Made by a program: the position numbers and the translations under genes | Notes under the pieces: generated by a model | Told to the model about the DNA's origin: nothing | The model's input: the letters and a program-made list of their open reading frames with translations, nothing else | The model's database searches: none | In this document: piece by piece, positions 27,523-40,006 of the stretch | Position numbering within the stretch: the stretch's first letter is position 1 | Layout of the letters: each line of letters starts with the position of its first letter | NCBI GenBank assembly: GCA_015060245.1 | Contig: SUYU01000013.1 | Location: forward strand, 6,538-70,537 | Reading direction: 5' to 3' | Length of the DNA: 64,000 nt | Source: Bacteroidales bacterium | GTDB lineage: Bacteria > Bacteroidota > Bacteroidia > Bacteroidales > UBA932

Positions 27523-27554
27523 AATCCCTGTTAGAGTGTGTTCTAACAGGGATT
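27523..27554. terminator. hairpin between the convergent gltX and the accessory block (possibly a bidirectional terminator)
   Basis: 13-bp stem AATCCCTGTTAGA / TCTAACAGGGATT with a 6-nt loop, followed by a T-rich run on the plus strand. Confidence 0.6.
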
Positions 27555-27625
27555 TGCTGTTTGATAAAGAATCTTCCAAGTAATCCTCATGATTGTTTTG
27601 AAAAGATCTTATGGGTTACCCGCTA

Positions 27626-27735
27626 CTATTTTAGCGTTGCAACCACCAGCACCGGATTGCTCTCCTCTGTGAGAGTGGCGGCTATCTCTTTCATTTTTGG
27701 AGAATTGCTCTTTGTGGCATATTCAATGAATTTGT
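27626..27735 (-). repeat. shared 3'-end repeat, copy A
   Basis: Near-identical at nucleotide level to the copies at 31640, 32904 and 34614 (ctattttagcgttgcaaccac.agcaccggattgctctc...ggagaattgctctttgtggcatattcaat). Confidence 0.9.
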
Positions 27736-28834
27736 CAGCAGCAATAATCTGATACATCTTGTTGCCTATACAATGTTGTGGATCAAATGGAGCACCGCCA
27801 TCAATATCATTAACGAAACCATGAGCCTTGAATTCATAATTATAAGGCATCGTATATAACTCATTACTGACCTTATCCAGAATCATAACTCCTTTTTTAA
27901 ATTCAGAATCAGATCCTCTGCTATATATGCCCGACAATGAATATTTATTGCCCAATAAAGAAATACTAATAAAACTTGCGCACTCTTTTACACTATTGAA
28001 GTTTACATCAAACCTCAACCTGTCGCCACCATCCTTCGTAATGACATCCCTTTTATACTTTCCAAAATCAAATATATAATTGGACAATTCCTTAAAATCA
28101 GTACTGAAGAGAGTAAGCCTGTCACCCATACCATTAAACACCCTCAAAGCACCATTAAATGAATACACCAAATCCGGGCAGACGATATCCATATCTCCTA
28201 AAAATGCCCCCTTCATACAATAAGAACCCTCCTCTGACAATTCGTATGAAAAAACAACTTTTGACATAGTATCAACAACAAATACCTTCTGCAAATACTT
28301 AAGTTTATCCACCATTATTGCCGCTGTAAATGCATAGTTGCCTTTCTCCAAATATGCTCCATACCTTATTGTTGAGCCACCTTGAATATTAGGTCTAATT
28401 ACCCTAACATTGCTGTTTTCTACATAACATGAAAGAATCTTGAAATCATCAAAAAGACAAAAATCACTATTCAAGTCATGCTCTACCGAAAGTCCCTGAA
28501 TCGAAAGATACTCCTTTGGCCCACGACCTTTCCTATCAACAGTTCGTACATATTTACCTGAAGTGTCAAACACCAGTACGCTCTCCTCTTGAGTCTGTAC
28601 ATAATAATACTTTCCGTCAAAATCAAATCTTGGCACATATCCCATGACAGATTCCGGAGTAGTTTCCAAAGGTATATATTCTATTTCCTTGGCATACCTG
28701 CCCAATTTTACCTCTTTACAATTCTTTACCGCATTCTCAACAGAAAAATGCTTATTATCCACTCTGACACTACCCTCGGCAGTACCAGAACAGCAAATAA
28801 GAACAACAGACAACAATAAAAATACATTTCTCAT
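27626..28834 (-). CDS. paralog A: lipoprotein of the '6-bladed beta-propeller / BF3164-like' family
   Basis: Lipobox (MRNVFLLLSVVLICCSG; Met at 28834 preferred), family motifs EIEYIPLET, KGRGPKEY and NDIDGG, and the shared tail ...KFIEYATKSNSPKMKEIAATLTEESNPVLVVATLK. The family call comes from memory of annotated Bacteroidales proteins, not from a search. Confidence 0.7.
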   Translation of the reverse strand: MRNVFLLLSVVLICCSGTAEGSVRVDNKHFSVENAVKNCKEVKLGRYAKEIEYIPLETTPESVMGYVPRFDFDGKYYYVQTQEESVLVFDTSGKYVRTVDRKGRGPKEYLSIQGLSVEHDLNSDFCLFDDFKILSCYVENSNVRVIRPNIQGGSTIRYGAYLEKGNYAFTAAIMVDKLKYLQKVFVVDTMSKVVFSYELSEEGSYCMKGAFLGDMDIVCPDLVYSFNGALRVFNGMGDRLTLFSTDFKELSNYIFDFGKYKRDVITKDGGDRLRFDVNFNSVKECASFISISLLGNKYSLSGIYSRGSDSEFKKGVMILDKVSNELYTMPYNYEFKAHGFVNDIDGGAPFDPQHCIGNKMYQIIAADKFIEYATKSNSPKMKEIAATLTEESNPVLVVATLK

Positions 28835-28873
28835 AACAATACACTTTTCTACAGCAGGGAATATTTCTACCAC

Positions 28874-28945
28874 CTATTTTAGCGTTGCAACCACAAGCAC
28901 CGGATTGCTCTCCTCTGTGAGGGTGGAGGCGATCTCTTTAATCTG
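28874..28945 (-). repeat. shared 3'-end repeat, copy B (shorter)
   Basis: The first ~70 nt from the stop are near-identical to the other copies, then the sequence diverges. Confidence 0.85.
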
Positions 28946-30067
28946 CGGATTATCATACATTGATGCATATTCTACAAAATCAATTGCATCAACGAGCCAT
29001 ACACACTTTCCATCACTTGTAAACCACTGGGGGAAAAATGGCAATCCTCCATCAAGATCATTCTCAAATGCAACCATCCCTATTTGTGGAATATTTTTCA
29101 TTGCATATAATTGGGACTCTTTATTATCATACAATAAAAAACCTACAGACTTCACATTACCCCCACCACAAATAGTAGAGAAATAACTGTCTGGAAAAAT
29201 AAATGATAAAAGGAAAAAATTATCACAACCTCTTGCCCCTGCAAAAAACAACTTCTCGCGTGGATTTGAATTATGCCTCAAGTCCCCATATTTTCCAAAA
29301 TCTATATTATATGCAACAGACTTCTCTTCTCCGTTCAGTCTATAAATGGTTTCAAAATCCCCCTTTACCAAATGAACTGTCCCATCCATACCTTTATAGA
29401 GTTTTGAATTTGCAAGAGTGGTTCCCTCTTTACCCATCATCAACATTGGAGTTCTGTACAATTCTCCCACATTAATTACAGCCTCAACAGTTCCATTACC
29501 ATTGAGCAATACACAATGCTCAACCAAGTCTCTTGTAAGTGAATCCTGTTTTGATGTCAGAATAACATACCCATTCTGTGCCGGCATAAAATCATCTATG
29601 TACTTAACTCCAATATCCTTGACTTCCTGTAAGGATATATTGTCAATCAAATCCAATTCTTGGTCATACACCAGAATCTTTTCTCGGGTAAGTACTGAAG
29701 TATTTCCTAACTTTTCATCAAAAACTAAACTTTGAATAAAGAAATATTCGTTTAAGCCTCTTCCTCGAGTACCAATTTTTCCTTTAAACTCTCCTTTGTG
29801 ATTGAAACACCGGATTTCATCGCCATGTGATGCAAAATTATATTGGCCATTACCGCCTGAAAAAAGAAGCACATTACCCAAAAGAGACTCCTCATTCGTT
29901 TGCAGTGGTATATACTCTATAGAAGAGAAGTACTTGCTCATCTTCAAAGTTTGAGCCTCCCCAACCGCTTTCGCAAAATCAAGTTTTTTGACTTCCTGTT
30001 TATCATTTGCACAGCCAAATGCAAACAAGAACAATACAAATACTACATATTTTCTAAACATATACAT
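28874..30067 (-). CDS. paralog B: lipoprotein of the same propeller-like family
   Basis: Lipobox LFAFGC, SIEYIPLQT, RGRGLNEY, NDLDGG, and the same final 22 aa (KEIASTLTEESNPVLVVATLK). Confidence 0.7.
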   Translation of the reverse strand: MYMFRKYVVFVLFLFAFGCANDKQEVKKLDFAKAVGEAQTLKMSKYFSSIEYIPLQTNEESLLGNVLLFSGGNGQYNFASHGDEIRCFNHKGEFKGKIGTRGRGLNEYFFIQSLVFDEKLGNTSVLTREKILVYDQELDLIDNISLQEVKDIGVKYIDDFMPAQNGYVILTSKQDSLTRDLVEHCVLLNGNGTVEAVINVGELYRTPMLMMGKEGTTLANSKLYKGMDGTVHLVKGDFETIYRLNGEEKSVAYNIDFGKYGDLRHNSNPREKLFFAGARGCDNFFLLSFIFPDSYFSTICGGGNVKSVGFLLYDNKESQLYAMKNIPQIGMVAFENDLDGGLPFFPQWFTSDGKCVWLVDAIDFVEYASMYDNPQIKEIASTLTEESNPVLVVATLK

Positions 30068-30176
30068 ATCTTAATTAGTTGGTAAATCATCTTCGCCTAC
30101 CCATTGACATCTTTTACATGTATAATAAATTTGGGCTTAGCAATGAAAAGTGAAAACGGGCCAGGCACAGAAATGC

Positions 30177-31280
30177 CTAAACCTCCATATAACCTAATCT
30201 GAAATCACCCTCATTATAATCACCATAAAGAAGATAGAGTTTATTACCGGTATCATCATACTTTATGTCAAATATTTCTCTATTCAATTTATATGTTTTC
30301 AATAATCTTCCTGCCCAATCATACTCTAAGATATAGTACAAATCATCTTCTAAATCTAACTTCCTGCCATAATATACGGCATATATCCTTTCTTGTGATA
30401 CAGCAATAGATACAAAACCCGTTACATCATAACTATGCTGATGATATGTGCATCCTCCTCCAGAATGCAACTTAATATATAATTTGGGAACGTGATACCT
30501 ATTCTCATTCAATAATACTATTGAATCATTTTCAAGTGAGTAAATACCCATATACGCACCATAATTTGTCCCAGTTACCATTCTTTTTCCATCCGGTCTT
30601 ACAGCAATTCTGGCAAAATCAAACATTTTTCTGCTGATCAATTCTTTGTGTTTTATTTCCACAATATTCGGATATAATGCAAATGTATCTAACAATTTAC
30701 CTTTATTATCATACAATTCGTACAGGTTCCTGTTCTTTCTCTTATTACCTGGAGTTGCTATAATTCTATCGTTTATAGGAATAATATCCGCAAAAGCCAA
30801 TTGCCCCATAAATTTACCTGGAACAGGAGACAATCTTGTAAATTCAAACGGATATGAATGTGACATTATCTCTTTTACTTTATATGTATACACCGTACTT
30901 AAAGGTAAGTGTACAACATAATAAGTACTGTCATTACCTGTTGTAAAATGTACATATGTCATACCCATAATAAATTCTCCAGGCCCTCTGCCAATAGCCG
31001 CAAAACTCTTCAAATACTCGCCTGTCCTTTTTGAAAAAAGATGTTGGGTATATTCATAATCGGAGCCCGTAGCAACTACAAAACTATCTTTAACAGCGAG
31101 TTTATGATAATGAGCCGTTTCTTTCTCTATCCTGGTTATTTCAATTACATCAGCATCTTTTGCCTTACTCAAATCAGGAGGAATAAAGGCTAGAGGATTA
31201 TCATTGGCTCTATTACATGATGAAAAGGTTACGATTGTGCAAACAATATAAAAAATAATAGATGCTAATCTTAATTCCAT
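30177..31280 (-). CDS. divergent lipoprotein, distantly related to the propeller-like paralogs and lacking the shared tail
   Basis: Lipobox TFSSC and a GRGPGEF motif in the equivalent position. The C-terminus differs (…EGDFRLGYMEV) and there is no 3' repeat. Confidence 0.55.
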   Translation of the reverse strand: MELRLASIIFYIVCTIVTFSSCNRANDNPLAFIPPDLSKAKDADVIEITRIEKETAHYHKLAVKDSFVVATGSDYEYTQHLFSKRTGEYLKSFAAIGRGPGEFIMGMTYVHFTTGNDSTYYVVHLPLSTVYTYKVKEIMSHSYPFEFTRLSPVPGKFMGQLAFADIIPINDRIIATPGNKRKNRNLYELYDNKGKLLDTFALYPNIVEIKHKELISRKMFDFARIAVRPDGKRMVTGTNYGAYMGIYSLENDSIVLLNENRYHVPKLYIKLHSGGGCTYHQHSYDVTGFVSIAVSQERIYAVYYGRKLDLEDDLYYILEYDWAGRLLKTYKLNREIFDIKYDDTGNKLYLLYGDYNEGDFRLGYMEV

Positions 31281-31297
31281 TTTACATATGATATAAG

Positions 31298-31555
31298 TTA
31301 CTCTTCTTTGGTAGAAAAATCATATCCACATGTTGGGCAGATACCTCTTGTCAATTTACCATCGCCACCTTTGGGATTTGAACCATCCTCAGGAGCAAAT
31401 AATTCTCCACATCCTGGGCACACAAATATACACATATTAGTGGATGTTCCTTTACATGTTCCATAAATACCAGTAGACTCTGATTGAACTACTTGCGCAA
31501 TAGAATAAACTGCAGCCAATAAAATTGTCACTACCGACAAACCTATAATCAACAA
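31298..31555 (-). CDS. small membrane/exported protein P1 with two CPxC knuckles (zinc-ribbon-like)
   Basis: Hydrophobic N-terminus LLIIGLSVVTILLAAVYSIA, then CPGCG-23 aa-CPTCG and an acidic end. The start is uncertain: the TTG at 31555 is used in the track, and the in-frame upstream codons read ...KIKKR with no ATG. Confidence 0.55.
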   Translation of the reverse strand: MLIIGLSVVTILLAAVYSIAQVVQSESTGIYGTCKGTSTNMCIFVCPGCGELFAPEDGSNPKGGDGKLTRGICPTCGYDFSTKEE

Positions 31556-31627
31556 TCTCTTTTTTATCTTTTGATTGTTTTTAAGTAATTCTACAAGCAG
31601 TGACTATGTTGCCCCACAAAGGCTGCA

Positions 31628-31751
31628 ACCTCCCCAATCCTATTTTAGCGTTGCAACCACAAGCACCGGATTGCTCTCATCTGTGAGGGTGGAGGCAATC
31701 TCTTTCATTTGCGGAGAATTGCTCTTTGTGGCATATTCAATAAACTTGTCG
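31628..31751 (-). repeat. shared 3'-end repeat, copy C (includes 12 nt past the stop)
   Basis: Near-identical to copies D and E, including cctccccaatc downstream of the stop. Confidence 0.9.
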
Positions 31752-32836
31752 GCATTTATCATCTGATACATCTTATCTCCAGCATAGTATACAGGATCAA
31801 ATGGCATACCCCCATCAATATCATTCACAAAGCCATGAGCGTTGTACTTATAATTATATGGCATTGCTTTAAGTTTATTAGTGGCTTTGTCCAGAATCAA
31901 ACTGCCTGCAGATAAAAATTTATCATTATTACCATTGGCATATATCTCCTGTAAAGAGTGCTTGTTGCCCATAAGGATAAGTTTTATAAAAGACTCCGTT
32001 TCAAATACATTATTAATACGCAGTCCCTTTGAATTATTTATAACTACATCATTTGGATTATAGTTACCATAATCAAAAGTATAACATAACAACCTCTCAT
32101 AATTATCATCATATACTACAAGAGTATCACCTGTAGACTTTAAATATCTTAAACAACCTTTAAATGAATATAATGAGCCACTAGTTGTGGAAGTTCCTTT
32201 TATCCCCCAATTGTACACAGACTCTGTTCCTAAAATTCCCAAATTCTTTATATTCAATAAAGAATCAATAATAAATAAACCTAATGTATCTTTTCCATCA
32301 ATATTGGGAGTAGATGTACGCACTGCCATTTCCCCATCTTTAATAAAGAGACAAGAAGATACATTTGATATACCCAAAGTATCAAGATCCAAAGCCTCCA
32401 CACACTCACCATCAAGGGTATAACCAAGTATTTTAGAACCGCTTATTACGCTTATTTGATTATCCTCTTTTATGGTAAAACCATCTATCAGCATATACTC
32501 CTTTGGTCCCCTGCCATGATTATTTATAAGATTTGTGAATTTTCCATTTGAATCAAATACTGTTATGTTTGTTGAACTGTATACATAATAATTACTGTTA
32601 CCCGCTCTAAACTTGGGCGCAAGACCAATAATTGATTCCTCCTTTGTTTCCAAAGGAATATATGCTATATCTGAAGCATACTCACTCAAACATATCTCCT
32701 GGCAATTCTGCATAGCCTCCTCTATGGAATATGTTCTATTATCATTATGATTAGAGACATTGCCTGTACACCCTGTTAAAAGAAACAGCCCCATAGCAAT
32801 GAAAGCGGCATACAAATTATTGAATTCTTTTACCAT
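31640..32836 (-). CDS. paralog C: lipoprotein of the propeller-like family
   Basis: Lipobox LLTGC, DIAYIPLET, HGRGPKEY, NDIDGG and the shared tail. Confidence 0.7.
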   Translation of the reverse strand: MVKEFNNLYAAFIAMGLFLLTGCTGNVSNHNDNRTYSIEEAMQNCQEICLSEYASDIAYIPLETKEESIIGLAPKFRAGNSNYYVYSSTNITVFDSNGKFTNLINNHGRGPKEYMLIDGFTIKEDNQISVISGSKILGYTLDGECVEALDLDTLGISNVSSCLFIKDGEMAVRTSTPNIDGKDTLGLFIIDSLLNIKNLGILGTESVYNWGIKGTSTTSGSLYSFKGCLRYLKSTGDTLVVYDDNYERLLCYTFDYGNYNPNDVVINNSKGLRINNVFETESFIKLILMGNKHSLQEIYANGNNDKFLSAGSLILDKATNKLKAMPYNYKYNAHGFVNDIDGGMPFDPVYYAGDKMYQMINADKFIEYATKSNSPQMKEIASTLTDESNPVLVVATLK

Positions 32837-32840
32837 ATTA

Positions 32841-33010
32841 ACATAATTTGCATTTGCACAAAATTACAGCAAACATTTATTAAAGCCAAGAACCTCCCCA
32901 ATCTTATTTTAGCGTTGCAACCACAAGCACCGGATTGCTCTCCTCTGTGAGGGTGGCGGCTATCTCTTTCATTTTTGGAGAATTGCTCTTTGTGGCATAT
33001 TCAATAAATT
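32841..33010 (-). repeat. shared 3'-end plus downstream-intergenic repeat, copy D
   Basis: About 170 nt align with 34551-34720 at a constant offset of 1710 nt, with only a few substitutions. Confidence 0.9.
32859..32866 (-). promoter_or_regulatory. candidate -7 box TAATTTTG inside the repeated intergenic cassette, upstream of paralog C
   Basis: The minus strand reads TAATTTTG, 22 nt before the ATG at 32836. A TCTTG lies 20 nt further upstream as a possible -33 element. Confidence 0.45.
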
Positions 33011-34136
33011 TCATAGCATTTACAGCCTGATACATTTTATTACCCACAACGCGTAAAGGCACAAACGGCGCACCACCATCAATGTCATTTTTGAAACCAT
33101 GAGCATTGAATTCATAATTATACGGCAAAGCGCACATCTTATTGCTTGCTTTATCCAACATCAGGAAGCAAGTTACACGATCTTTGTGCCAACCATCTGT
33201 GTTCCATCCCTTACTGAAGACTTTCGGCATGGCCTTCAAGCGCCCGTCAAGTTTAAACAGCATAAAACTGTCAGACTCAATATTCCACCTATGCTCAATT
33301 CCTGTAATGAATTCATCTTTGACTCCATGTGAATTGCTATAATCAAAGGTAATTTGTGATAATTCTTTCAAATTATTATCATAAAATACTATTGTATCGG
33401 CGGGTAATCCTTTAGACAGCCTTAAATTCCCTTTATATGAATGAATGAATAAACCATAATTCAGACTAAATTTATTTTCCAGATTCTCGTCCTTCAATAT
33501 ATTGCATAATGTATCAACTACAAGCAGCCTCGATGATGAAAAGGACCATTTCTTATCTGGCTCACGTTTACCCGTGCATAAAACAGCATACCTGCCTTCA
33601 TTAAGGTAGACGCCTCTATAAATGCCTGAAAAACTTGACTTGTTCAAATCTAGATTTTCACTGAGTACATCTTGCATATCCAATTCTCTTACACACTTTC
33701 CATCATCTTCATATACAAGTATTTTATAATTGTCAAACAGACAAGCATACTGCTCAACAAGATCACTTTCAAGAGAGAAGTCAGATGCGCTTAAATACTC
33801 TCCTGGGCCCCGTCCGCTTTTGTTTATCTGCGAAATATATTTACCATTCTGATCAAAGATCAATACGGATTGCGGCCTATTGGCATTGTAGATATACAAA
33901 TACTTCCCATCCGTGTTTATGTCAAACACAAACATCAATGATGATTTTTCATTTGTTTCCAACGGTATATACTCTATATCTGAAAAATACTTGCTCAAAG
34001 GCACATCTGCACAATTCTCAAGTGCTTCAGAAATATTATAACGAGTATCTTCAACGCTTGCCACATTTGATCTACAGGAGACTATGGCAAACACACACAG
34101 TACCAATATATATTTACTAAATCTACTCATTGTCAT
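32904..34136 (-). CDS. paralog D: lipoprotein of the propeller-like family
   Basis: Lipobox FAIVSC, DIEYIPLET, SGRGPGEY, NDIDGG and the shared tail. The ATG at 34136 lies 2 nt after the P2 stop (the track start at 34142 is a TTG overlapping that stop). Confidence 0.7.
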   Translation of the reverse strand: MTMSRFSKYILVLCVFAIVSCRSNVASVEDTRYNISEALENCADVPLSKYFSDIEYIPLETNEKSSLMFVFDINTDGKYLYIYNANRPQSVLIFDQNGKYISQINKSGRGPGEYLSASDFSLESDLVEQYACLFDNYKILVYEDDGKCVRELDMQDVLSENLDLNKSSFSGIYRGVYLNEGRYAVLCTGKREPDKKWSFSSSRLLVVDTLCNILKDENLENKFSLNYGLFIHSYKGNLRLSKGLPADTIVFYDNNLKELSQITFDYSNSHGVKDEFITGIEHRWNIESDSFMLFKLDGRLKAMPKVFSKGWNTDGWHKDRVTCFLMLDKASNKMCALPYNYEFNAHGFKNDIDGGAPFVPLRVVGNKMYQAVNAMKFIEYATKSNSPKMKEIAATLTEESNPVLVVATLK

Positions 34137-34138
34137 TA

Positions 34139-34465
34139 TCAATAAATAATTACTATTCTATTTTCATCTAAATCAGATATATGGTAAATTTTATCTATTT
34201 CTGTAACAGAACCACAGACTTGGCAAGATATGTATGAAACATAAAAATAAGTATGATCTGTACTCATGTAATAACCACAATATTCCACTAAATTTGCCTG
34301 GTGACACACTTCACATCTTAATAATGCTGTATATGTTTGACCATTATCATTTGCGGATGTTTCAGAATTTAATCCTCCTACTGAAGTAGCCGCATTCAAA
34401 GTATTGAATGTAAAAAAAGCAATTAATGTAAGAAATAACATCTTACCAAAGGGTAATTTCTTCAT
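34139..34465 (-). CDS. small exported protein P2 with two CxxC knuckles
   Basis: Sec-type signal peptide MKKLPFGKMLFLTLIAFFTFNTLNA, then CEVCH-26 aa-CQVCG. Its stop abuts the start of paralog D. Confidence 0.65.
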   Translation of the reverse strand: MKKLPFGKMLFLTLIAFFTFNTLNAATSVGGLNSETSANDNGQTYTALLRCEVCHQANLVEYCGYYMSTDHTYFYVSYISCQVCGSVTEIDKIYHISDLDENRIVIIY

Positions 34466-34550
34466 AGCATAAATATTTTATAAAGTTAATAAATCCAAGT
34501 TTAAACATTCCCACTTGACAGCGTATCCCAAGCATTGGCTACGTTGCCAC

Positions 34551-34720
34551 ACAATATTTGCATTAGCACAAAATTACAGCAAACATTTATTAAAGCCAAG
34601 AACCTCCCCAATCCTATTTTAGCGTTGCAACCACAAGCACCGGATTGCTCTCCTCTGTGAGGGTGGCGGCTATCTCTTTCATTCTTGGAGAATTGCTCTT
34701 TGTGGCATATTCAATAAACT
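34551..34720 (-). repeat. shared 3'-end plus downstream-intergenic repeat, copy E
   Basis: See copy D. Confidence 0.9.
34569..34576 (-). promoter_or_regulatory. candidate -7 box TAATTTTG inside the repeated intergenic cassette, upstream of P2
   Basis: Same cassette as at 32859-32866, about 104 nt upstream of the P2 ATG. Confidence 0.4.
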
Positions 34721-35789
34721 TGTCGGCCTGAACCAATTGATATAAATATTTATCAGTGCAAAAATCGGGAAGAAAAGGAGCACCATAATCAATATCATTT
34801 TTAAAGCCATGAGTCTCAAATTCATAATTATATGGCATAGCACATAACTCTTTTTTTTGTTTGTCAAGAATCATAACTCCTGCTGCCAACCTTGAATCTG
34901 TACCTTTGGAATATAATTTGGCCAACGAATATTTATTGCCCAACAAACCAAATTTTATAAATCTGTCGGACTCTAAAATTTCTCTTGAATAATTACGGAG
35001 GCTATTGGGATTTTCTGCATCCAAATTATTGAAATCATATTTTCCATAATCAAATATATACCTGTCGGCCATACAATTGCCATCATATACAAACAGCGTA
35101 TCTCCATTTGCATTAAATATATATATGGAATCTTTATAGGCATATACCTTATCATTTTCTACAATTGTCATCCCATTCGCCAAAAACGAAGGCATAATAC
35201 CCAGTTCTATAGCCGATATAACATTTGATGCAGAATCTACAATTTGCAAAGATTGGTGTTCGGATTTACCTTCGCTTACCAATGCAAACATGCCTTTCCC
35301 CATATTTGCACTGGATCTTATTGACGAATAACCCGCTTGTTTTAAGTTTACGCACCTTAGACTCTTGCCTTCTATTGAATAAGAGAGTATTTTTAAACCA
35401 TCATCCACAGAGACCTCCTTATTATCTACAGATAGATGATTTACTCTCAAATACTCTTCCGGTCCCCTTCCCTTTTTATTTATTTTGCTTACGAATTTTC
35501 CTTCTTTATCAAAAATCAATATGCTGGAAGTGGATACATATATGTAGTTCTCATCGGTACAAAATAATGGATTCCTACCAATAAGAGCCTCATTTGTAGT
35601 CTGTAACGGGATATATCCCAGTTCCAATGCATACTGACTTAATGGAATATCGCGGCACATTTTAAGTGCTTCCGGAATAGAATACCTTAAGTTATCATTA
35701 TCATTGGCAGCAGAATTACATCCTGACAATAAAAGTACTATACCGCAACATAATGAAACAAAAAGCATTTTGACAAATAATCTGCTCAT
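34614..35789 (-). CDS. paralog E: lipoprotein of the propeller-like family
   Basis: Lipobox LLSGC, ELGYIPLQT, KGRGPEEY, NDIDYG and the shared tail. Confidence 0.7.
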   Translation of the reverse strand: MSRLFVKMLFVSLCCGIVLLLSGCNSAANDNDNLRYSIPEALKMCRDIPLSQYALELGYIPLQTTNEALIGRNPLFCTDENYIYVSTSSILIFDKEGKFVSKINKKGRGPEEYLRVNHLSVDNKEVSVDDGLKILSYSIEGKSLRCVNLKQAGYSSIRSSANMGKGMFALVSEGKSEHQSLQIVDSASNVISAIELGIMPSFLANGMTIVENDKVYAYKDSIYIFNANGDTLFVYDGNCMADRYIFDYGKYDFNNLDAENPNSLRNYSREILESDRFIKFGLLGNKYSLAKLYSKGTDSRLAAGVMILDKQKKELCAMPYNYEFETHGFKNDIDYGAPFLPDFCTDKYLYQLVQADKFIEYATKSNSPRMKEIAATLTEESNPVLVVATLK

Positions 35790-35819
35790 AATATTTGCCT
35801 ACCTCCCCGTTACATAAAT

Positions 35820-36101
35820 TTACTTATCTATATCTTCTTCCTCCGATATTATGGTCTCCTCTCCACAAGTATTGCATTTGATTTTTTCTACGATGAAATG
35901 CTCGGGATTGTTCAAATCTATATATCCATATAATCGTATGTCGTCACTACCGCATATAGGACACACAATTATAGATTGATTTTCGGCCTGAATATTTTCT
36001 TCATTCAAAATCAATAATACACCATTGCTATCTCCAGCATTTATATTTGATGAAATTACAGATACCAATAGCAATAAAGTTAGAAATTTAATTTTTTTCA
36101 T
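35820..36101 (-). CDS. small exported protein P3 with two CxxC knuckles
   Basis: Signal peptide MKKIKFLTLLLLVSVISSNINA, then CPICG-25 aa-CNTCG and an acidic tail EEEDIDK. Confidence 0.65.
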   Translation of the reverse strand: MKKIKFLTLLLLVSVISSNINAGDSNGVLLILNEENIQAENQSIIVCPICGSDDIRLYGYIDLNNPEHFIVEKIKCNTCGEETIISEEEDIDK

Positions 36102-36206
36102 AAAAACATCTTATAAGGTTATTAAATATAGTTTACTGTACAAACGAACCTTGTGCATAAATTTCAGATGAATCAATAATTCTATAATATGCGCCATTGG
36201 CGATTG

Positions 36207-36214
36207 CAAATATA
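36207..36214 (-). promoter_or_regulatory. candidate -7 box (TATATTTG) upstream of P3
   Basis: The minus strand matches TAnnTTTG, 32 nt downstream of the nearest GTTTGACA box. Confidence 0.35.
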
Positions 36215-36245
36215 GAGAATATATGGTTTTACCTCATAAAAAAAA

Positions 36246-36336
36246 GTTTGACACAGTTGTTTTTATTCAACTGATTTACAGATATATAGAATTTCAATTC
36301 TTGAAAAAGTTTGACAGGCGGGAAAAATGTTTGACA
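36246..36336 (-). promoter_or_regulatory. three direct GTTTGACA boxes (copy 1), a candidate operator array
   Basis: Boxes at 36246-36253, 36309-36316 and 36329-36336 (minus strand: YTGTCAAACWTTT). Spacings are 63 and 20 bp, close to whole helical turns. Confidence 0.5.
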
Positions 36337-36403
36337 AGTCTCTAATTTAACCTGTTTTGTGCCGATAGCCTAACCTGAAACCATCTTCATTATTTTAATT
36401 TCA

Positions 36404-38044
36404 TCAGTTGGACTTTAACAGATTGGTTATATACGTATTCAAATTGATGTTATTGATATCTGTTCCCAACTTCTTACGTATACTGCTGCTTATATGATAG
36501 TGACGGCTTTGGTTGGTATAGAATCCTATATCCTTGCCATTCATTCCTATTGCAAAGAGACAACAATACTCCATCTCCAATTCTGTAAGATTCCTTTCTT
36601 TCAGATGTGATATAAATCTGGGATGCGTAGATTTGTAGACAAGCAACAGGGAGTGCATAAACTCTTCCCTATCTTCTATAATAGTGTCTATCTTACGCCA
36701 CAACTCCTTTTCATCCCTGATTCTTGATATGAAGAGTTGGTTCAACAAATCTATTCTCTCCTTTATTATATCTGTTATTGATTTGTCAAGCGACATATTT
36801 GAGTCAAGCAACTCTTTCAAACTCGAAACCTCCTCTTCCAAAAGCGAATAAGAATGTGCCAATCTCTCCTTTTCTGCCTCTACCAATCTCTTTTCAAGCA
36901 GGCTTGACTTCAATTTTTGCCTGATGAGAACTATAATAAGCACAAGCATAAGAATAAACGATACTGATGCCAACAGTATCAGCCTCCTCAAGTTCTGCTG
37001 TTGCGTATTTTTTGTCTCGAGAGCATGCCGTTCCTCCAGGAATCGCGTATCTTCCCTTATTTGCAACAGACTCAATGAGTCACTATGAAGGAAATATTTC
37101 TTATAGCACATTAATGATTTTTCGTAATCATTAAAATTTTCATATATCTCTGATAGAATTGAATACATACGTGTTGGCCTTTCGTTTGTATAAATCTTAT
37201 ACCTTTCAACAGCATCATAAGCACTTTTATAATCCTTAATACTACAATATGCTGCGGCAACACTCAGCCATTCCACATTGCGGTGAGGTACTTTATAAGT
37301 ATATTCCAATATTGTATTTGCAACACTATCCCTTTCATAGTCTGACCTATAGGTAACCAATATTTCATAATATTGATTAAGCCAGTTGAGATTTTGGGCA
37401 GTATCAACGATACTTTCTATATACTTGAGTTCTTTAAAAGCATTTACTGAATCTGATTGTGCAAAATAACCATAAAAGAGCCTTCTGTGAGAATTGAACC
37501 AGGAACTCTCTTTACCTCCAAGTTTAAATAGATTTGCGGCTTCCTTCATACACTTGTTATGGGACTCAAAATCAAATACAGACCTGTAAATTATTCCTTG
37601 GGCAAACAGCATCCTTGCCCTGGTAAGATTGTCATTGGAGAGTTTACCCTCATCAAGACCTTTTACAAAAGCGGCCATTGCTGACTCTTCATCATGGCGG
37701 TTTCTGTAAATGGCTCCTTTATAATAGTACATGCGGAGTTTGTCTGTTGCACTGCCTTTGTGTGTATAGTAATCTATGGCGGGTTGCAACACAGAAAAGT
37801 CTGTGGTATCTATGTAATTCTTGTCCATAGCCATGGAGAGCAACAGGGAGTGCTTTGCCTCCACTTTTGCACTTCGCAGTTGCGATTGGTCAATTGACCG
37901 GAGTGTGGCCAGAGCACTGTCGGGATAATGCTCAATATATGAATCAACTTCATTGAGAAGATTTAATGCCGCACTGTTGTCACGGCATGAAACAAAAAGT
38001 GTGATTGCTGCTATAAGAAACAGATATGGAACTCTTACACTCAT
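36404..38044 (-). CDS. one-component membrane regulator: lipobox signal, TPR-like periplasmic domain, one TM helix, coiled coil and a C-terminal LuxR/GerE-like HTH (copy 1)
   Basis: N-terminus MSVRVPYLFLIAAITLFVSC, TPR-like helical repeats, TM helix LILLASVSFILMLVLIIVLI, and C-terminus LTELEMEYCCLFAIGMNGKDIGFYTNQSRHYHISSSIRKKLG. Confidence 0.6.
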   Translation of the reverse strand: MSVRVPYLFLIAAITLFVSCRDNSAALNLLNEVDSYIEHYPDSALATLRSIDQSQLRSAKVEAKHSLLLSMAMDKNYIDTTDFSVLQPAIDYYTHKGSATDKLRMYYYKGAIYRNRHDEESAMAAFVKGLDEGKLSNDNLTRARMLFAQGIIYRSVFDFESHNKCMKEAANLFKLGGKESSWFNSHRRLFYGYFAQSDSVNAFKELKYIESIVDTAQNLNWLNQYYEILVTYRSDYERDSVANTILEYTYKVPHRNVEWLSVAAAYCSIKDYKSAYDAVERYKIYTNERPTRMYSILSEIYENFNDYEKSLMCYKKYFLHSDSLSLLQIREDTRFLEERHALETKNTQQQNLRRLILLASVSFILMLVLIIVLIRQKLKSSLLEKRLVEAEKERLAHSYSLLEEEVSSLKELLDSNMSLDKSITDIIKERIDLLNQLFISRIRDEKELWRKIDTIIEDREEFMHSLLLVYKSTHPRFISHLKERNLTELEMEYCCLFAIGMNGKDIGFYTNQSRHYHISSSIRKKLGTDINNINLNTYITNLLKSN

Positions 38045-38172
38045 AAAACAATTTCTCTGTCATGATTGTACATATTGCCATACTGGCAATTTTAATTGGA
38101 AGTAATAACAAACTCTATCTTTATCTTCCCATTTCAACATCTTACCAGCGTTTATTATTAATACATAATTTG

Positions 38173-38180
38173 CAAAGTTA
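38173..38180 (-). promoter_or_regulatory. candidate -7 box (TAACTTTG) upstream of regulator copy 1
   Basis: The minus strand matches TAnnTTTG, 31 nt downstream of the nearest box of the second array. The geometry is the same as at 36207-36214. Confidence 0.35.
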
Positions 38181-38210
38181 AGCATACATGACATTATATC
38201 ATAAAAAAAA

Positions 38211-38301
38211 GTTTGACACAGTTGTTTTTATTCAACTGATTTACAGATATATAGAATTTAATTTTTTGAAAAAGTTTGACAGGCGGGAAAAATGTTTGAC
38301 A
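38211..38301 (-). promoter_or_regulatory. three direct GTTTGACA boxes (copy 2)
   Basis: Boxes at 38211-38218, 38274-38281 and 38294-38301, offset exactly 1965 nt from copy 1. Confidence 0.5.
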
Positions 38302-38368
38302 AGTCTCTAATTTAACCTGTTTTGTGCCGATAGCCTAACCTGAAACCATCTTCATTATTTTAATTTCA

Positions 38369-40006
38369 TCAGTTGGACTTTAACAGATTGGTTATATACG
38401 TATTCAAATTGATGTTATTGATATCTGTTCCCAACTTCTTACGTATACTGCTGCTTATATGATAGTGACGGCTTTGGTTGGTATAGAATCCTATATCCTT
38501 GCCATTCATTCCTATTGCAAAGAGACAACAGTACTCCATCTCCAATTCTGTAAGGTTCCTTTCTTTCAGATGTGATATAAATTTGGGATGCGTAGATTTG
38601 TAGACAAGCAACAGGGAGTGCATAAAATCTTCCCTGTCTTCTATAATGGTGTCTATCTTACGCCACAACTCCTTTTCATCCCTGATTCTTGATATAAAGA
38701 GTTGGTTCAACAAATCTATTCTCTCCTTTATTATATCTGTTATTGATTTGTCAAGCGAGATATTTGAGTCAAGCATATCTTTCAAACTCGATACCTCTTC
38801 TTCCAATAGTGAATAAGAATGTGCCAATCTCTCCTTTTCAGCCTCTACCAATCTCTTTTCAAGCAGGCTTGACTTCAATTTTTGCCTGATGACAACTACG
38901 ACAAGCAGTAACATGAGGATGAGAGATATGGATGCTGACAGTGTACGTTTCCTGGAGTTATCTTTTTCTGCATTTTCCAGTTTAAGGCCATATCGCTCCT
39001 CTATAAACTGCGTATCACTCTTCAGTTTTGCGACATTTGCTGAATCACTTCTTGAAAAATACTGCTTGTAATGGAACAATGCATCAGAAATATTACCTGA
39101 ATTCTCATGCAATTCCGACAATATAGCATGGTATCTGATATTCTGATCTGCATTATATTTGTCATATAGTCCTATAGCATCAAAACCACTATTATAATCA
39201 CCTGTGAGCAAATATGCCGCAGCAACTGAAAGCCACGGAATCTGTGAATGTTCAACATTTCTCAAATAATCAGATAATGTATTCTTAAGACTATCCTTTG
39301 CATATTGCATCTCATAACTGAGAATAGCCTCAAAACATCTATTCTTATCAGCCTTTATATCATTTAGAGCAATTTTTTTTAGATATTCTATTTGCTCTTT
39401 GGCCTTTATAGAATCATTCTTTGCAGAATATCCATAATATACATTAATCAAGGAATTTATCTCAGAGCGTCTGTTTCCTCCTTTACGAAAACAACATGAA
39501 GCCTCCTGCATACACTTTATATATGCGTCAAAGTTCCTTAAATTGTAGTATATGTTGCCTTGAGCAAACAGCATCCTTGCTCTGGTCAAATTGTCATTGG
39601 AGAGTTTCCCCTCATCAAGACCTTTTACCAAAGCGGCCATTGCAGACTCTTCATCATTGCGGTTTCTGTAAATGACACTTTTATAATAGTACATGCGGAG
39701 TTTGTCTGTTGCACTGCCTTTGTGTGTATAGTAATCTATGGCGGGTTGCAACACAGAAAAGTCTGTGGTGTCTATGTAATTCTTGTCCATAGCCATGGAG
39801 AGCAACAGGGAGTGCTTTGCCTCCACTTTTGCACTTCGCAGTTGCGATTGGTCAATTGACCGGAGTGTGGCCAGAGCACTGTCGGGATAATGCTCAATAT
39901 ATGAATCAACTTCATTGAGAAGATTTAATGCAGCACTATTGTCACGGCATGAAACAAAAAGTGTGATTGCTGCTATAAGAAACAGATATGGAACTCGGGC
40001 ACTCAT
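38369..40006 (-). CDS. one-component membrane regulator, same architecture (copy 2)
   Basis: The N-terminal ~148 aa and C-terminal ~175 aa are nearly identical to copy 1. The central ~225 aa (distal TPR region and TM helix) are strongly diverged. Confidence 0.6.
   Translation of the reverse strand: MSARVPYLFLIAAITLFVSCRDNSAALNLLNEVDSYIEHYPDSALATLRSIDQSQLRSAKVEAKHSLLLSMAMDKNYIDTTDFSVLQPAIDYYTHKGSATDKLRMYYYKSVIYRNRNDEESAMAALVKGLDEGKLSNDNLTRARMLFAQGNIYYNLRNFDAYIKCMQEASCCFRKGGNRRSEINSLINVYYGYSAKNDSIKAKEQIEYLKKIALNDIKADKNRCFEAILSYEMQYAKDSLKNTLSDYLRNVEHSQIPWLSVAAAYLLTGDYNSGFDAIGLYDKYNADQNIRYHAILSELHENSGNISDALFHYKQYFSRSDSANVAKLKSDTQFIEERYGLKLENAEKDNSRKRTLSASISLILMLLLVVVVIRQKLKSSLLEKRLVEAEKERLAHSYSLLEEEVSSLKDMLDSNISLDKSITDIIKERIDLLNQLFISRIRDEKELWRKIDTIIEDREDFMHSLLLVYKSTHPKFISHLKERNLTELEMEYCCLFAIGMNGKDIGFYTNQSRHYHISSSIRKKLGTDINNINLNTYITNLLKSN

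Follow-up and report, generated by a model that had tools for sequence, protein, structure and literature searches.

A stretch of 64,000 nucleotides (nt) from a Bacteroidales bacterium of the UBA932 lineage (GenBank assembly GCA_015060245.1, contig SUYU01000013.1, positions 6,538 to 70,537) was analysed; this whole stretch is referred to below as the window. It contains an array of propeller lipoprotein genes, and three of these are directly preceded by a small gene. The three small genes, P1, P2 and P3, encode putative exported proteins with two CxxC motifs and belong to a lineage-restricted family of very narrow distribution. Between strains, the cysteine (Cys) core of the small protein is replaced together with the propeller that follows it. 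The small genes and their propeller partners are as follows.

P3, 35820-36101, minus strand: 93 amino acids (aa); CPICG-x25-CNTCG, no extra Cys, acidic tail.
Lipoprotein A, 34614-35789, minus strand: 391 aa; DUF5128 (PF17170, E 3e-28), six-bladed NHL-type propeller, lipobox LLSGC.
P2, 34139-34465, minus strand: 108 aa; CEVCH-x26-CQVCG, one extra non-conserved Cys.
Lipoprotein D, 32904-34136, minus strand: 410 aa from the ATG at 34136; DUF5128 (Pfam E 5e-25), pairs with P2.
P1, 31298-31555, minus strand: 85 aa counted from TTG; C-x7-C, then CPGCG-x23-CPTCG, six Cys.
TolB_like propeller lipoprotein, 30177-31280, minus strand: 367 aa; PF15869 (Pfam E 3e-16), six-bladed, pairs with P1-type proteins.

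The double CxxC motifs were first reported in a preliminary description of this DNA, and their positions and spacing are confirmed by the minus-strand open reading frames (ORFs). In P3 the two knuckles are C47-P-I-C50-G and C76-N-T-C79-G, 25 aa apart; in P2 they are C51-E-V-C54-H and C81-Q-V-C84-G, 26 aa apart. P1, numbered from the TTG, has C46-P-G-C49-G and C73-P-T-C76-G, 23 aa apart, and additional Cys at positions 34 and 42. That each small gene heads a lipoprotein module also holds: the propeller gene lies 2-30 nt downstream in the window, and the arrangement recurs in other loci. Just 2 nt indeed separate the P2 stop codon (TGA, 34141-34139) from the lipoprotein D start (ATG at 34136), and the two genes may be translationally coupled. 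The gap is 30 nt from P3 to the lipoprotein A gene and 17 nt from P1 to the TolB_like gene; in all three cases the lipoprotein encoded next has a lipobox.

The N-termini of all three proteins are hydrophobic (maximum 12-aa Kyte-Doolittle values of 2.4-2.9). MKK precedes the hydrophobic segment in P2 and P3; the P1 allele of the window has no MKK n-region. The predicted signal peptide of P3 is MKKIKFLTLLLLVSVISSNINA, followed by a 24-aa linker and a zinc-ribbon-like domain; that of P2 is MKKLPFGKMLFLTLIAFFTFNTLNA, followed by a linker and the double-CxxC domain. The c-regions are A-x-A-like (NINA-G, TLNA-A and SIA-Q, with the hyphen at the predicted cleavage site), the linkers of P1-P3 are 24-25 aa long and the acidic mature parts have isoelectric points of 4.0-4.7. 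The n-, h- and c-regions of a Sec signal for signal peptidase I are present by inspection and hydropathy and are conserved family-wide; Sec export and signal cleavage of the mini-proteins are probable.

The pattern C..C-x15-35-C..C has eight matches in the six-frame translation of the window. Three of the eight fall in signal-bearing ORFs, which are P1, P2 and P3, and all three of these ORFs directly precede propeller genes. Because of this coincidence, and because the four Cys are invariant in homologues, a chance origin is excluded.

P3 and P2 share 30% identity (E 4e-8) and P3 matches P1 with an E of 7e-5; these pairwise matches support a common family for the three proteins. P3 and P2 are present at NCBI as MBE6230306.1 and MBE6230304.1, both a 'hypothetical protein' of a Bacteroidales metagenome-assembled genome (MAG), and an identical P3 protein is present in 39 collection blocks. 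A word-based search with P2 returns 11 clusters, in which the signal peptide and linker are near-invariant and the Cys domain is variable; all four Cys are retained in every full-length member. The word-based search with P3 finds nothing beyond P3's own cluster, and a second word-based search yields further P1-type members. A HMMER profile search over 1.84 billion representative proteins (E<=1e-3) gives 13 matches, of which 11 are small proteins of the P1-P3 family. Ten of these 11 have a signal peptide and two CxxC motifs; the exception, P0022, differs at its N-terminus, probably as a result of chimeric assembly. Of the two remaining matches, one is to a protein of low-complexity repeats and the other to a tandem, cytoplasmic Lar-like protein. 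The whole family amounts to about 25 clusters (90% identity) in a set of roughly 15 billion proteins, and all members come from gut metagenomes and Bacteroidales MAGs, including a goat caecum MAG.

The family has four subtypes: P1, with six conserved Cys; P2; P3; and P4, which is found in sister strains but not in the window. In a 19-sequence alignment of the four subtypes, no position is invariant other than the four Cys of the knuckles and the Ala of the predicted cleavage site. The Cys pattern seen in the window is thus conserved in homologues, and orthologous loci retain both the ORFs and the pattern. The dN/dS ratio (nonsynonymous to synonymous substitution rates) is 0.19 for P3 compared with locus L007 and 0.26-0.4 for P2 compared with locus L006. 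In P0036, a metagenomic relative of P1, the second knuckle is CLSGC (CxxxC); this is the sole departure from the CxxC spacing of the family.

Spurious ORFs, or functionless pseudogenes in decay, might be suspected from the window's P1, which lacks an ATG. This explanation is barely tenable, and for the family it is largely refuted already: four Cys (six in P1) are conserved across diverged homologues, the genes are under purifying selection, their genomic position is kept in unrelated contexts and the fold prediction is confident. The P1-P3 family consists of real coding genes and is new and lineage-restricted.

The P1 start codon had been called doubtful, with the suggestion that the frame might prove non-coding. 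The doubt about the start is borne out: the ATG of P1 relatives is ATA in the window (31570-31568), as it is in L007 and L008. The frame is open to 31603, and the first in-frame starts are two TTG codons located four and five codons after the ATA. One gene caller skipped P1 and another called a 77-aa version. Judged from its sequence, the window allele is start-defective or poorly translated, though the family codes. The non-coding suggestion fails at the family level; P1 relatives begin with MKKFLF, MKKRLM or MKKKLM from an ATG and keep all six Cys. The window P1 is also mosaic relative to L005 (window 31533-31573 against L005 1110-1148). All 13 nt differences fall in the first 13 codons (39 nt) and the other 231 nt are identical; this confinement places a recombination breakpoint within the signal-peptide coding region.

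An AlphaFold2 model of P2, based on the family alignment, has a disordered linker (residues 14-47, predicted local distance difference test score (pLDDT) <50) followed by a well-predicted domain (residues 51-108, pLDDT 85-90). The domain is predicted as a three-stranded antiparallel sheet with strands at 60-67, 73-81 and 87-95. The trimmed P3 domain is modelled at pLDDT 76, with strands at 18-24, 31-39 and 45-53. Top Foldseek matches of the trimmed P3 model are zinc ribbons; with 50 residues, E values can be expected to be weak, and they are (0.08-1). The NrdR N-terminal domain is matched with a probability of 0.97-0.99 and a template modelling score of about 0.52, TFIIS is also among the best matches, and ribosomal L37ae/eL43 superimposes with a root-mean-square deviation of 1.4 A across 41 residues. 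Foldseek with the full-length P2 model is uninformative (E>1); this is explained by half of the model being disordered. When the sequence profile is compared with the PDB, RPA12, TFIIS and L33 rank first. All matches of Pfam and NCBIfam zinc-ribbon models to P1-P4 are below cutoff (10-23 bits against cutoffs of 21-60), and a PADLOC scan gives no significant match. The zinc-ribbon-like character first read from the motifs is therefore supported by the three strands of the AlphaFold2 models and by the best matches in both Foldseek and the PDB profile comparison. The domain of the mini-proteins is predicted to be a classical zinc ribbon fold of 50-60 aa.

A metal site is favoured by the CPxCG-type knuckles, which the models place on hairpins; a disulfide would suit the additional conserved Cys pair of the P1 type. 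To our knowledge, known zinc ribbons are all cytoplasmic modules that bind nucleic acids or proteins; the biochemical question raised here is whether a Cys4 zinc ribbon can work outside the cytoplasm. One explanation built on these features is that the mini-proteins are exported Zn(Cys)4 or Fe(Cys)4 (rubredoxin-like) units which deliver metal or electrons to the propeller in the periplasm. MerP is an example of an exported CxxC metal binder, and both the CPxCG-type knuckles and the zinc-ribbon prediction would suit such a role. However, the non-Cys surface positions are hypervariable, which is unexpected for a metallochaperone or an electron carrier. The rubredoxin model PF00301 has no match at E<=1 (the one related match, to the 'rubredoxin metal binding domain' of LapB, scores 11.7 bits), and there are no metal transport genes nearby. 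A metal or redox role of this kind is very improbable.

Related small genes are found in a range of other loci, whose gene content is given below.

L007/L008, sister strains: regulator, P3-A, P4-C, P1-TolB_like, E, F, P2-D, gltX.
L005, goat caecum MAG: P1-TolB_like, E, P2'-D', gltX.
L006: propeller, P2-D, gltX.
L014-16, syntenic slot in another species: regulator, small protein with a tail resembling those of the type IX secretion system (T9SS), 163-aa CSSC lipoprotein, two P1-like-TolB_like pairs, DUF5128, gltX.
L011-13, different chromosomal site: TPR regulator, 162-aa CSSC lipoprotein, P1-like-TolB_like, TolB_like.
L097/98: regulator, ..., P2-like-DUF5128.
L099-101: stand-alone P2-like-DUF5128 pair amid unrelated genes.

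L005 is the single locus from a genome-collection scan that used the lineage-specific C-terminal tail of the propellers as its pattern. All 16 small-gene copies, from ten locus types, are followed by a propeller lipoprotein gene, at distances of -4 to 48 nt. Partners are specific to the subtype: P1 is found with TolB_like (recurring in L005, L007, L008, L011-13 and L014-16), P2 with D-type, P3 with A-type (retained in L001, L007 and L008) and P4 with C-type propellers. Since the linkage has no exception among the 16 copies, is subtype-specific and includes a stand-alone pair, the minimal unit is one small protein plus one propeller.

In two species (L014 8072-8560, L011 5786-6271), the gene 3-4 nt ahead of a P1-like gene encodes a lipoprotein of 162-163 aa with a conserved ...YICIDASCSSCMTEL... 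motif, the CSSC lipoprotein. By eye it is colinear with a TlpA/ResA-type thioredoxin fold (CxxC, later YPVLQD). No match to such a fold is found in Pfam, in NCBIfam, with phmmer against the PDB or with a profile against the PDB, and BLASTP against an approximate ResA sequence gives no match either. If the CSSC lipoprotein were a thioredoxin fold, the mini-proteins would be tied to periplasmic thiol redox chemistry.

The other three propeller genes in the window have no small partner.

Lipoprotein C, 31640-32836, minus strand: 398 aa; DUF5128; orphan in the window, preceded by P4 in L007/L008.
Lipoprotein E, 28874-30067, minus strand: DUF5128 propeller; orphan, no small gene in front.
Lipoprotein F, 27626-28873, minus strand: DUF5128 propeller; orphan, no small gene in front.

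In L007 and L008, P4 carries the motif CGMCE-x26-CKDCG. A tblastn search with P4 against the window finds P2 and P3 only; P4 is absent. Module order differs among strains, and in place of P4 the window has P2-D between A and C. P4 is thus missing and P1 has an ATA for its ATG, while both partner propellers are intact; the small gene decays or is lost before the propeller.

Comparison of the window with L005 shows where variation is concentrated. TolB_like and E are 97-98% identical, P2 is 75% identical and D is 65.5% identical. At the DNA level, identity is 96-100% in the upstream spacer and throughout the leader of P2. Precisely where the first CxxC begins (~34310) it falls to about 75%, and values of 52-92% persist until the end of D. 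Overall, identities for D are 65-81%, set against 97-98% in the genes next to it. Four of five close relatives have a P2 leader with 98-100% identity and a domain with 58-92%. Between the window and L005, the P2 leader has zero synonymous changes and one nonsynonymous change, and dN/dS in the Cys domain is about 0.9; close comparisons as a whole give Cys-domain values of 0.9-1.3. P2 differs from its counterpart in L007 at five sites, all nonsynonymous and all within the Cys domain. The conserved leader, together with the joint divergence of the Cys domain and D, means that the Cys domain and the propeller have been replaced as a block. Co-replacement of Cys core and propeller, and shuffling of modules, are features of this array.

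Sequence repeats are found at the boundaries of the P2-D cassette.

Repeat element GGATTGGGGAGGTT...TAATTTTG, 34569-34614, minus strand: includes a -7 box; after the lipoprotein A stop, upstream of P2.
Second copy of the repeat element, 32859-32904, minus strand: after the lipoprotein D stop; a related copy is at 31627-31640.

The two near-identical GGATTGGGGAGGTT...TAATTTTG elements, with the 3' tails of the propeller genes, flank the cassette as direct repeats. The final ~35 codons (...FIEYATKSNSPKMKEIAATLTEESNPVLVVATLK) of five propeller paralogues are far better conserved than the remainder of the genes. The 3' ends concerned (27619-27918, 31633-31932, 32897-33196 and 34607-34906, also 28875-28989) have 77-82% DNA identity over the first 115 nt and about 75% over 300 nt; elsewhere the proteins are 29-46% identical. 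This suggests gene conversion, a recombination handle or a sorting signal.

The explanation we favour, tentatively and at slightly less than an even chance, is that the mini-protein and its propeller form a cognate binding pair in the cell envelope with a role in antagonism or recognition. It is favoured because of the conserved leader, the sharp junction, the co-varying downstream gene, the presence of orphans and the loss of the small gene first. The mini-protein would be exported by Sec by means of a cleavable signal, and would consist of a disordered acidic linker and a zinc-ribbon-like domain. Outside the cytoplasm, whether in the periplasm or at the outer membrane, the Cys domain would most likely bind the propeller lipoprotein of its own cassette. 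The Cys domain and propeller would be exchanged within the species by recombination, bounded 5' by the conserved leader and 3' by the conserved propeller tail with the intergenic repeat. The secreted mini-protein might then be an effector or ligand, and the lipoprotein a protective or receptor protein. A Cys core and propeller that behave as a single hypervariable recombining unit carry the population signature of antagonism or recognition systems.

Several points weigh against a binding pair with such a role. Three of the six window propellers have no small partner; the small protein is therefore dispensable for propeller production. The island contains no dedicated exporter, lysis gene or maturation enzyme, and no delivery system is found in the island or in the stand-alone pair L099-101; the absence of an exporter leaves the exit route from a diderm cell unexplained. 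We know of no zinc ribbon that serves as a toxin fold, and an immunity protein of ~400 aa, the size of the propeller, would be unusually large for an effector of 60 aa. Co-replacement of adjacent genes can also be explained by linkage in one recombination tract. In addition, the signal-peptide cleavage call rests on inspection by eye and on hydropathy.

The main rival is that the mini-protein is a housekeeping accessory subunit, i.e. a stable structural partner, chaperone or inhibitor of the propeller. Variability would then be due to phage or host-immune pressure, with the partner co-evolving. The same linkage evidence applies here. The 2-nt gap between P2 and D, and the overlaps of -4 to +1 nt in some pairs of propellers with NVEALA proteins (see below), fit coupled production, and the small gene and propeller diverge jointly. 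On the other hand, propellers remain intact after loss of the small gene (P4 absent, P1 start lost) and half of the propeller paralogues have no partner; moreover, polymorphic effector systems are where an abrupt change from leader to hypervariable core is more typically seen. A housekeeping role is a serious contender, but on balance unlikely.

The leader and core organisation also calls to mind a precursor peptide, with signal and linker as the leader and the propeller as an enzyme that processes or modifies the core; the product released would be a signal or antimicrobial resembling a bacteriocin or a ribosomally synthesised and post-translationally modified peptide (RiPP). A conserved leader with a hypervariable core resembles RiPP and toxin precursors, and some six-bladed NHL-type propellers are enzymes. 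P3 also has a faint match to TIGR04165, a Cys-rich peptide family (23 bits against a cutoff of 60). However, there is no recognised maturase, protease, leader peptidase or ATP-binding cassette exporter in the island or the stand-alone pair, the core is predicted as an autonomously folded mini-domain and not a linear peptide, and the propellers carry no recognisable catalytic signature (the six paralogues share only 16 invariant columns). A precursor peptide is improbable.

The array lies in a low-GC island (27600-40000, GC 0.34-0.37 compared with ~0.45 for the rest of the window) in which all genes are on the minus strand. Its neighbours are the dcw cluster and gltX at one end and udk with a tRNA synthetase gene at the other; the chromosomal slot of the island carries different cassette sets in L007, L005 and L014. 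Other features of the array are the following.

Bacteroidetes-type -7 box TATATTTG, 36207-36214, minus strand: ~105 nt upstream of the P3 start; pattern match (TAnnTTTG).
Terminator-like hairpin, 27523-27554, minus strand: 13-bp stem at the end of the array.
Two paralogous TPR-transmembrane regulators, 36404-38044 and 38369-40006, minus strand: 546 and 545 aa, upstream of the array.

The -7 box at 36207-36214 is likely to be the promoter of the array. Judging by the arrangement of these signals, the array would be co-transcribed from this box (36214), with possible internal promoters at 34576 and 32866, and would end at the hairpin (27554-27523) as its terminator. A sigma-70 promoter scan is at the level of shuffled background, the sigma-70 model being inappropriate for Bacteroidetes, and Rfam has no matches in the window from 27 to 40.5 kb. 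For the propellers of the window, Pfam E values for DUF5128 range from 1e-16 to 3e-28 and PDB matches are to NHL repeats and 4raa; in NCBIfam no family scores above cutoff for any of them.

Each regulator begins with a lipoprotein-like signal, followed by a TPR region, a membrane-spanning segment around residue 350 and a C-terminal part in the cytoplasm; both are distantly related to DUF6377 and to the BT3442 family. As regulators of this type (~545 aa) flank arrays in the window, L011, L014 and L097, the mini-proteins might act on the neighbouring regulators, whose periplasmic TPR domain would sense them as ligands or anti-ligands and so control the array. This is quite improbable: the stand-alone pair L099-101 has no regulator, up to four mini-proteins occur per one or two regulators, and strict adjacency is to the propeller. 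The readings as a substrate peptide, a regulator ligand or a metal-handling protein are all less likely than either an antagonism or recognition pair or a housekeeping accessory.

The tandem regulators are themselves mosaic; their ends are near-identical (N-terminal ~110 aa, C-terminal ~190 aa) and the central periplasmic TPR part has diverged. Metagenome contigs from the same species end just upstream of P3, probably due to the regulator repeat. In the P3 leader region, a relic at 36139-36201 (minus strand) has 71% identity to the last 21 aa of a 133-aa protein with a T9SS-sorting-tail-like domain. In L014 and L097 this protein is encoded between the regulator and the first cassette; given the relic, its gene has apparently been deleted in the window lineage.

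DUF5128 and TolB_like propellers are abundant in gut Bacteroidales, as are the small NVEALA proteins. A segment of P3, ENIQAEN, had been put forward as a faint echo of the NVEALA motif at residues 34-40. It is at residues 35-41, and it does not reflect sequence homology. The NVEALA model PF14055 does not match P1, P2, P3, P4 or P0028, whether the threshold is E<=1 or E<=10; small proteins taken as controls from the loci of other propellers match it with E values of 3e-13 to 0.04. None of the six frames of the window contains the motif N[VIL]EAL[AST]; P3 has only NEENIQAEN, and P4 has only SNIEN. When the P1-P3 family is aligned with NVEALA-like proteins by hhalign, five columns align, covering 'MKK..' only. 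Homology to NVEALA was accordingly rejected, given the lack of a PF14055 match and an hhalign alignment limited to 'MKK'.

Scanning metagenomes with the 'GRGPxEY' region of DUF5128 yielded 80 loci with 106 unique propeller ORFs. Twenty-one of these propellers have an NVEALA-like small ORF no more than 200 nt upstream, at gaps of -4 to 181 nt; such ORFs match PF14055 (E 3e-13 to 0.04), and 14 of 16 NVEALA cores have an even number of Cys. One human-gut NVEALA cassette (L044-L094) is represented by seven variants. Its leader (MKKKITFGLV...ANVDAL) is 88-100% identical, and 100% identical in six of the seven variants; the core has four Cys. In the divergent alleles, the core is 37-62% and the propeller 56-73% identical, against 95-100% for the upstream flanking ORF. 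The small-protein slot in front of propellers can therefore hold an unrelated exported zinc-ribbon-like domain. The slot and the pattern of variation are the same, so the 'echo' of NVEALA is functional and positional and is not due to homology. By this analogy, the best explanation is that the P1-P3 cassette is the functional counterpart of NVEALA-propeller cassettes in other Bacteroidales.

On a wider reading, polymorphic cassettes of this kind would be widespread in gut Bacteroidales as effector-immunity or ligand-receptor (kin recognition) systems, NVEALA-type in the human gut and zinc-ribbon-type in this ruminant lineage, with recombination at the conserved leader and the conserved propeller tail moving them from strain to strain. 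Zinc-ribbon cassettes would moreover supply a rare example of a Zn(Cys)4 module outside the cytoplasm, made possible by the reducing periplasm of an anaerobe. This generalisation is speculative and, as a whole, rather doubtful. Literature searched on NVEALA, on DUF5128/PF17170/BF3164 and on periplasmic or secreted zinc ribbons contains nothing relevant; relative to it, an exported zinc-ribbon-like core in the slot preceding a propeller is new, as are the cassette dynamics.

Among known systems, classical zinc ribbons (NrdR, TFIIS, L37ae/eL43, Lar) share with the P1-P3 family two CxxC knuckles, often CPxCG, and the predicted three-stranded sheet. Unlike them, the P1-P3 family has a predicted N-terminal Sec-type signal and is paired with lipoproteins. 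Polymorphic toxin-immunity systems (CdiA-CT/CdiI, Rhs and colicin-type) have a conserved N-terminal part, a sharp junction, a hypervariable C-terminal domain and a co-varying next gene; they also have orphan genes of the downstream type in arrays, and exchange by recombination. The cassettes described here resemble them in all of these respects, but differ in having no recognisable toxin domain or dedicated secretion system and in having a propeller lipoprotein of 370-410 aa as the partner.

A close parallel in organisation is with NVEALA proteins. Like P1-P3, these are proteins of 80-130 aa with MKK and a hydrophobic N-terminus, a Cys-containing C-terminal core and a position in the slot before a propeller; the conserved leader, hypervariable core and co-varying propeller are likewise shared. 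NVEALA cores contain scattered single Cys, in contrast to the two CxxC knuckles, 23-26 aa apart, of the P1-P3 family. The partner genes in the window are clear members of known groups by Pfam and PDB matches, namely the 4raa 'putative exported protein', DUF5128 and TolB_like.

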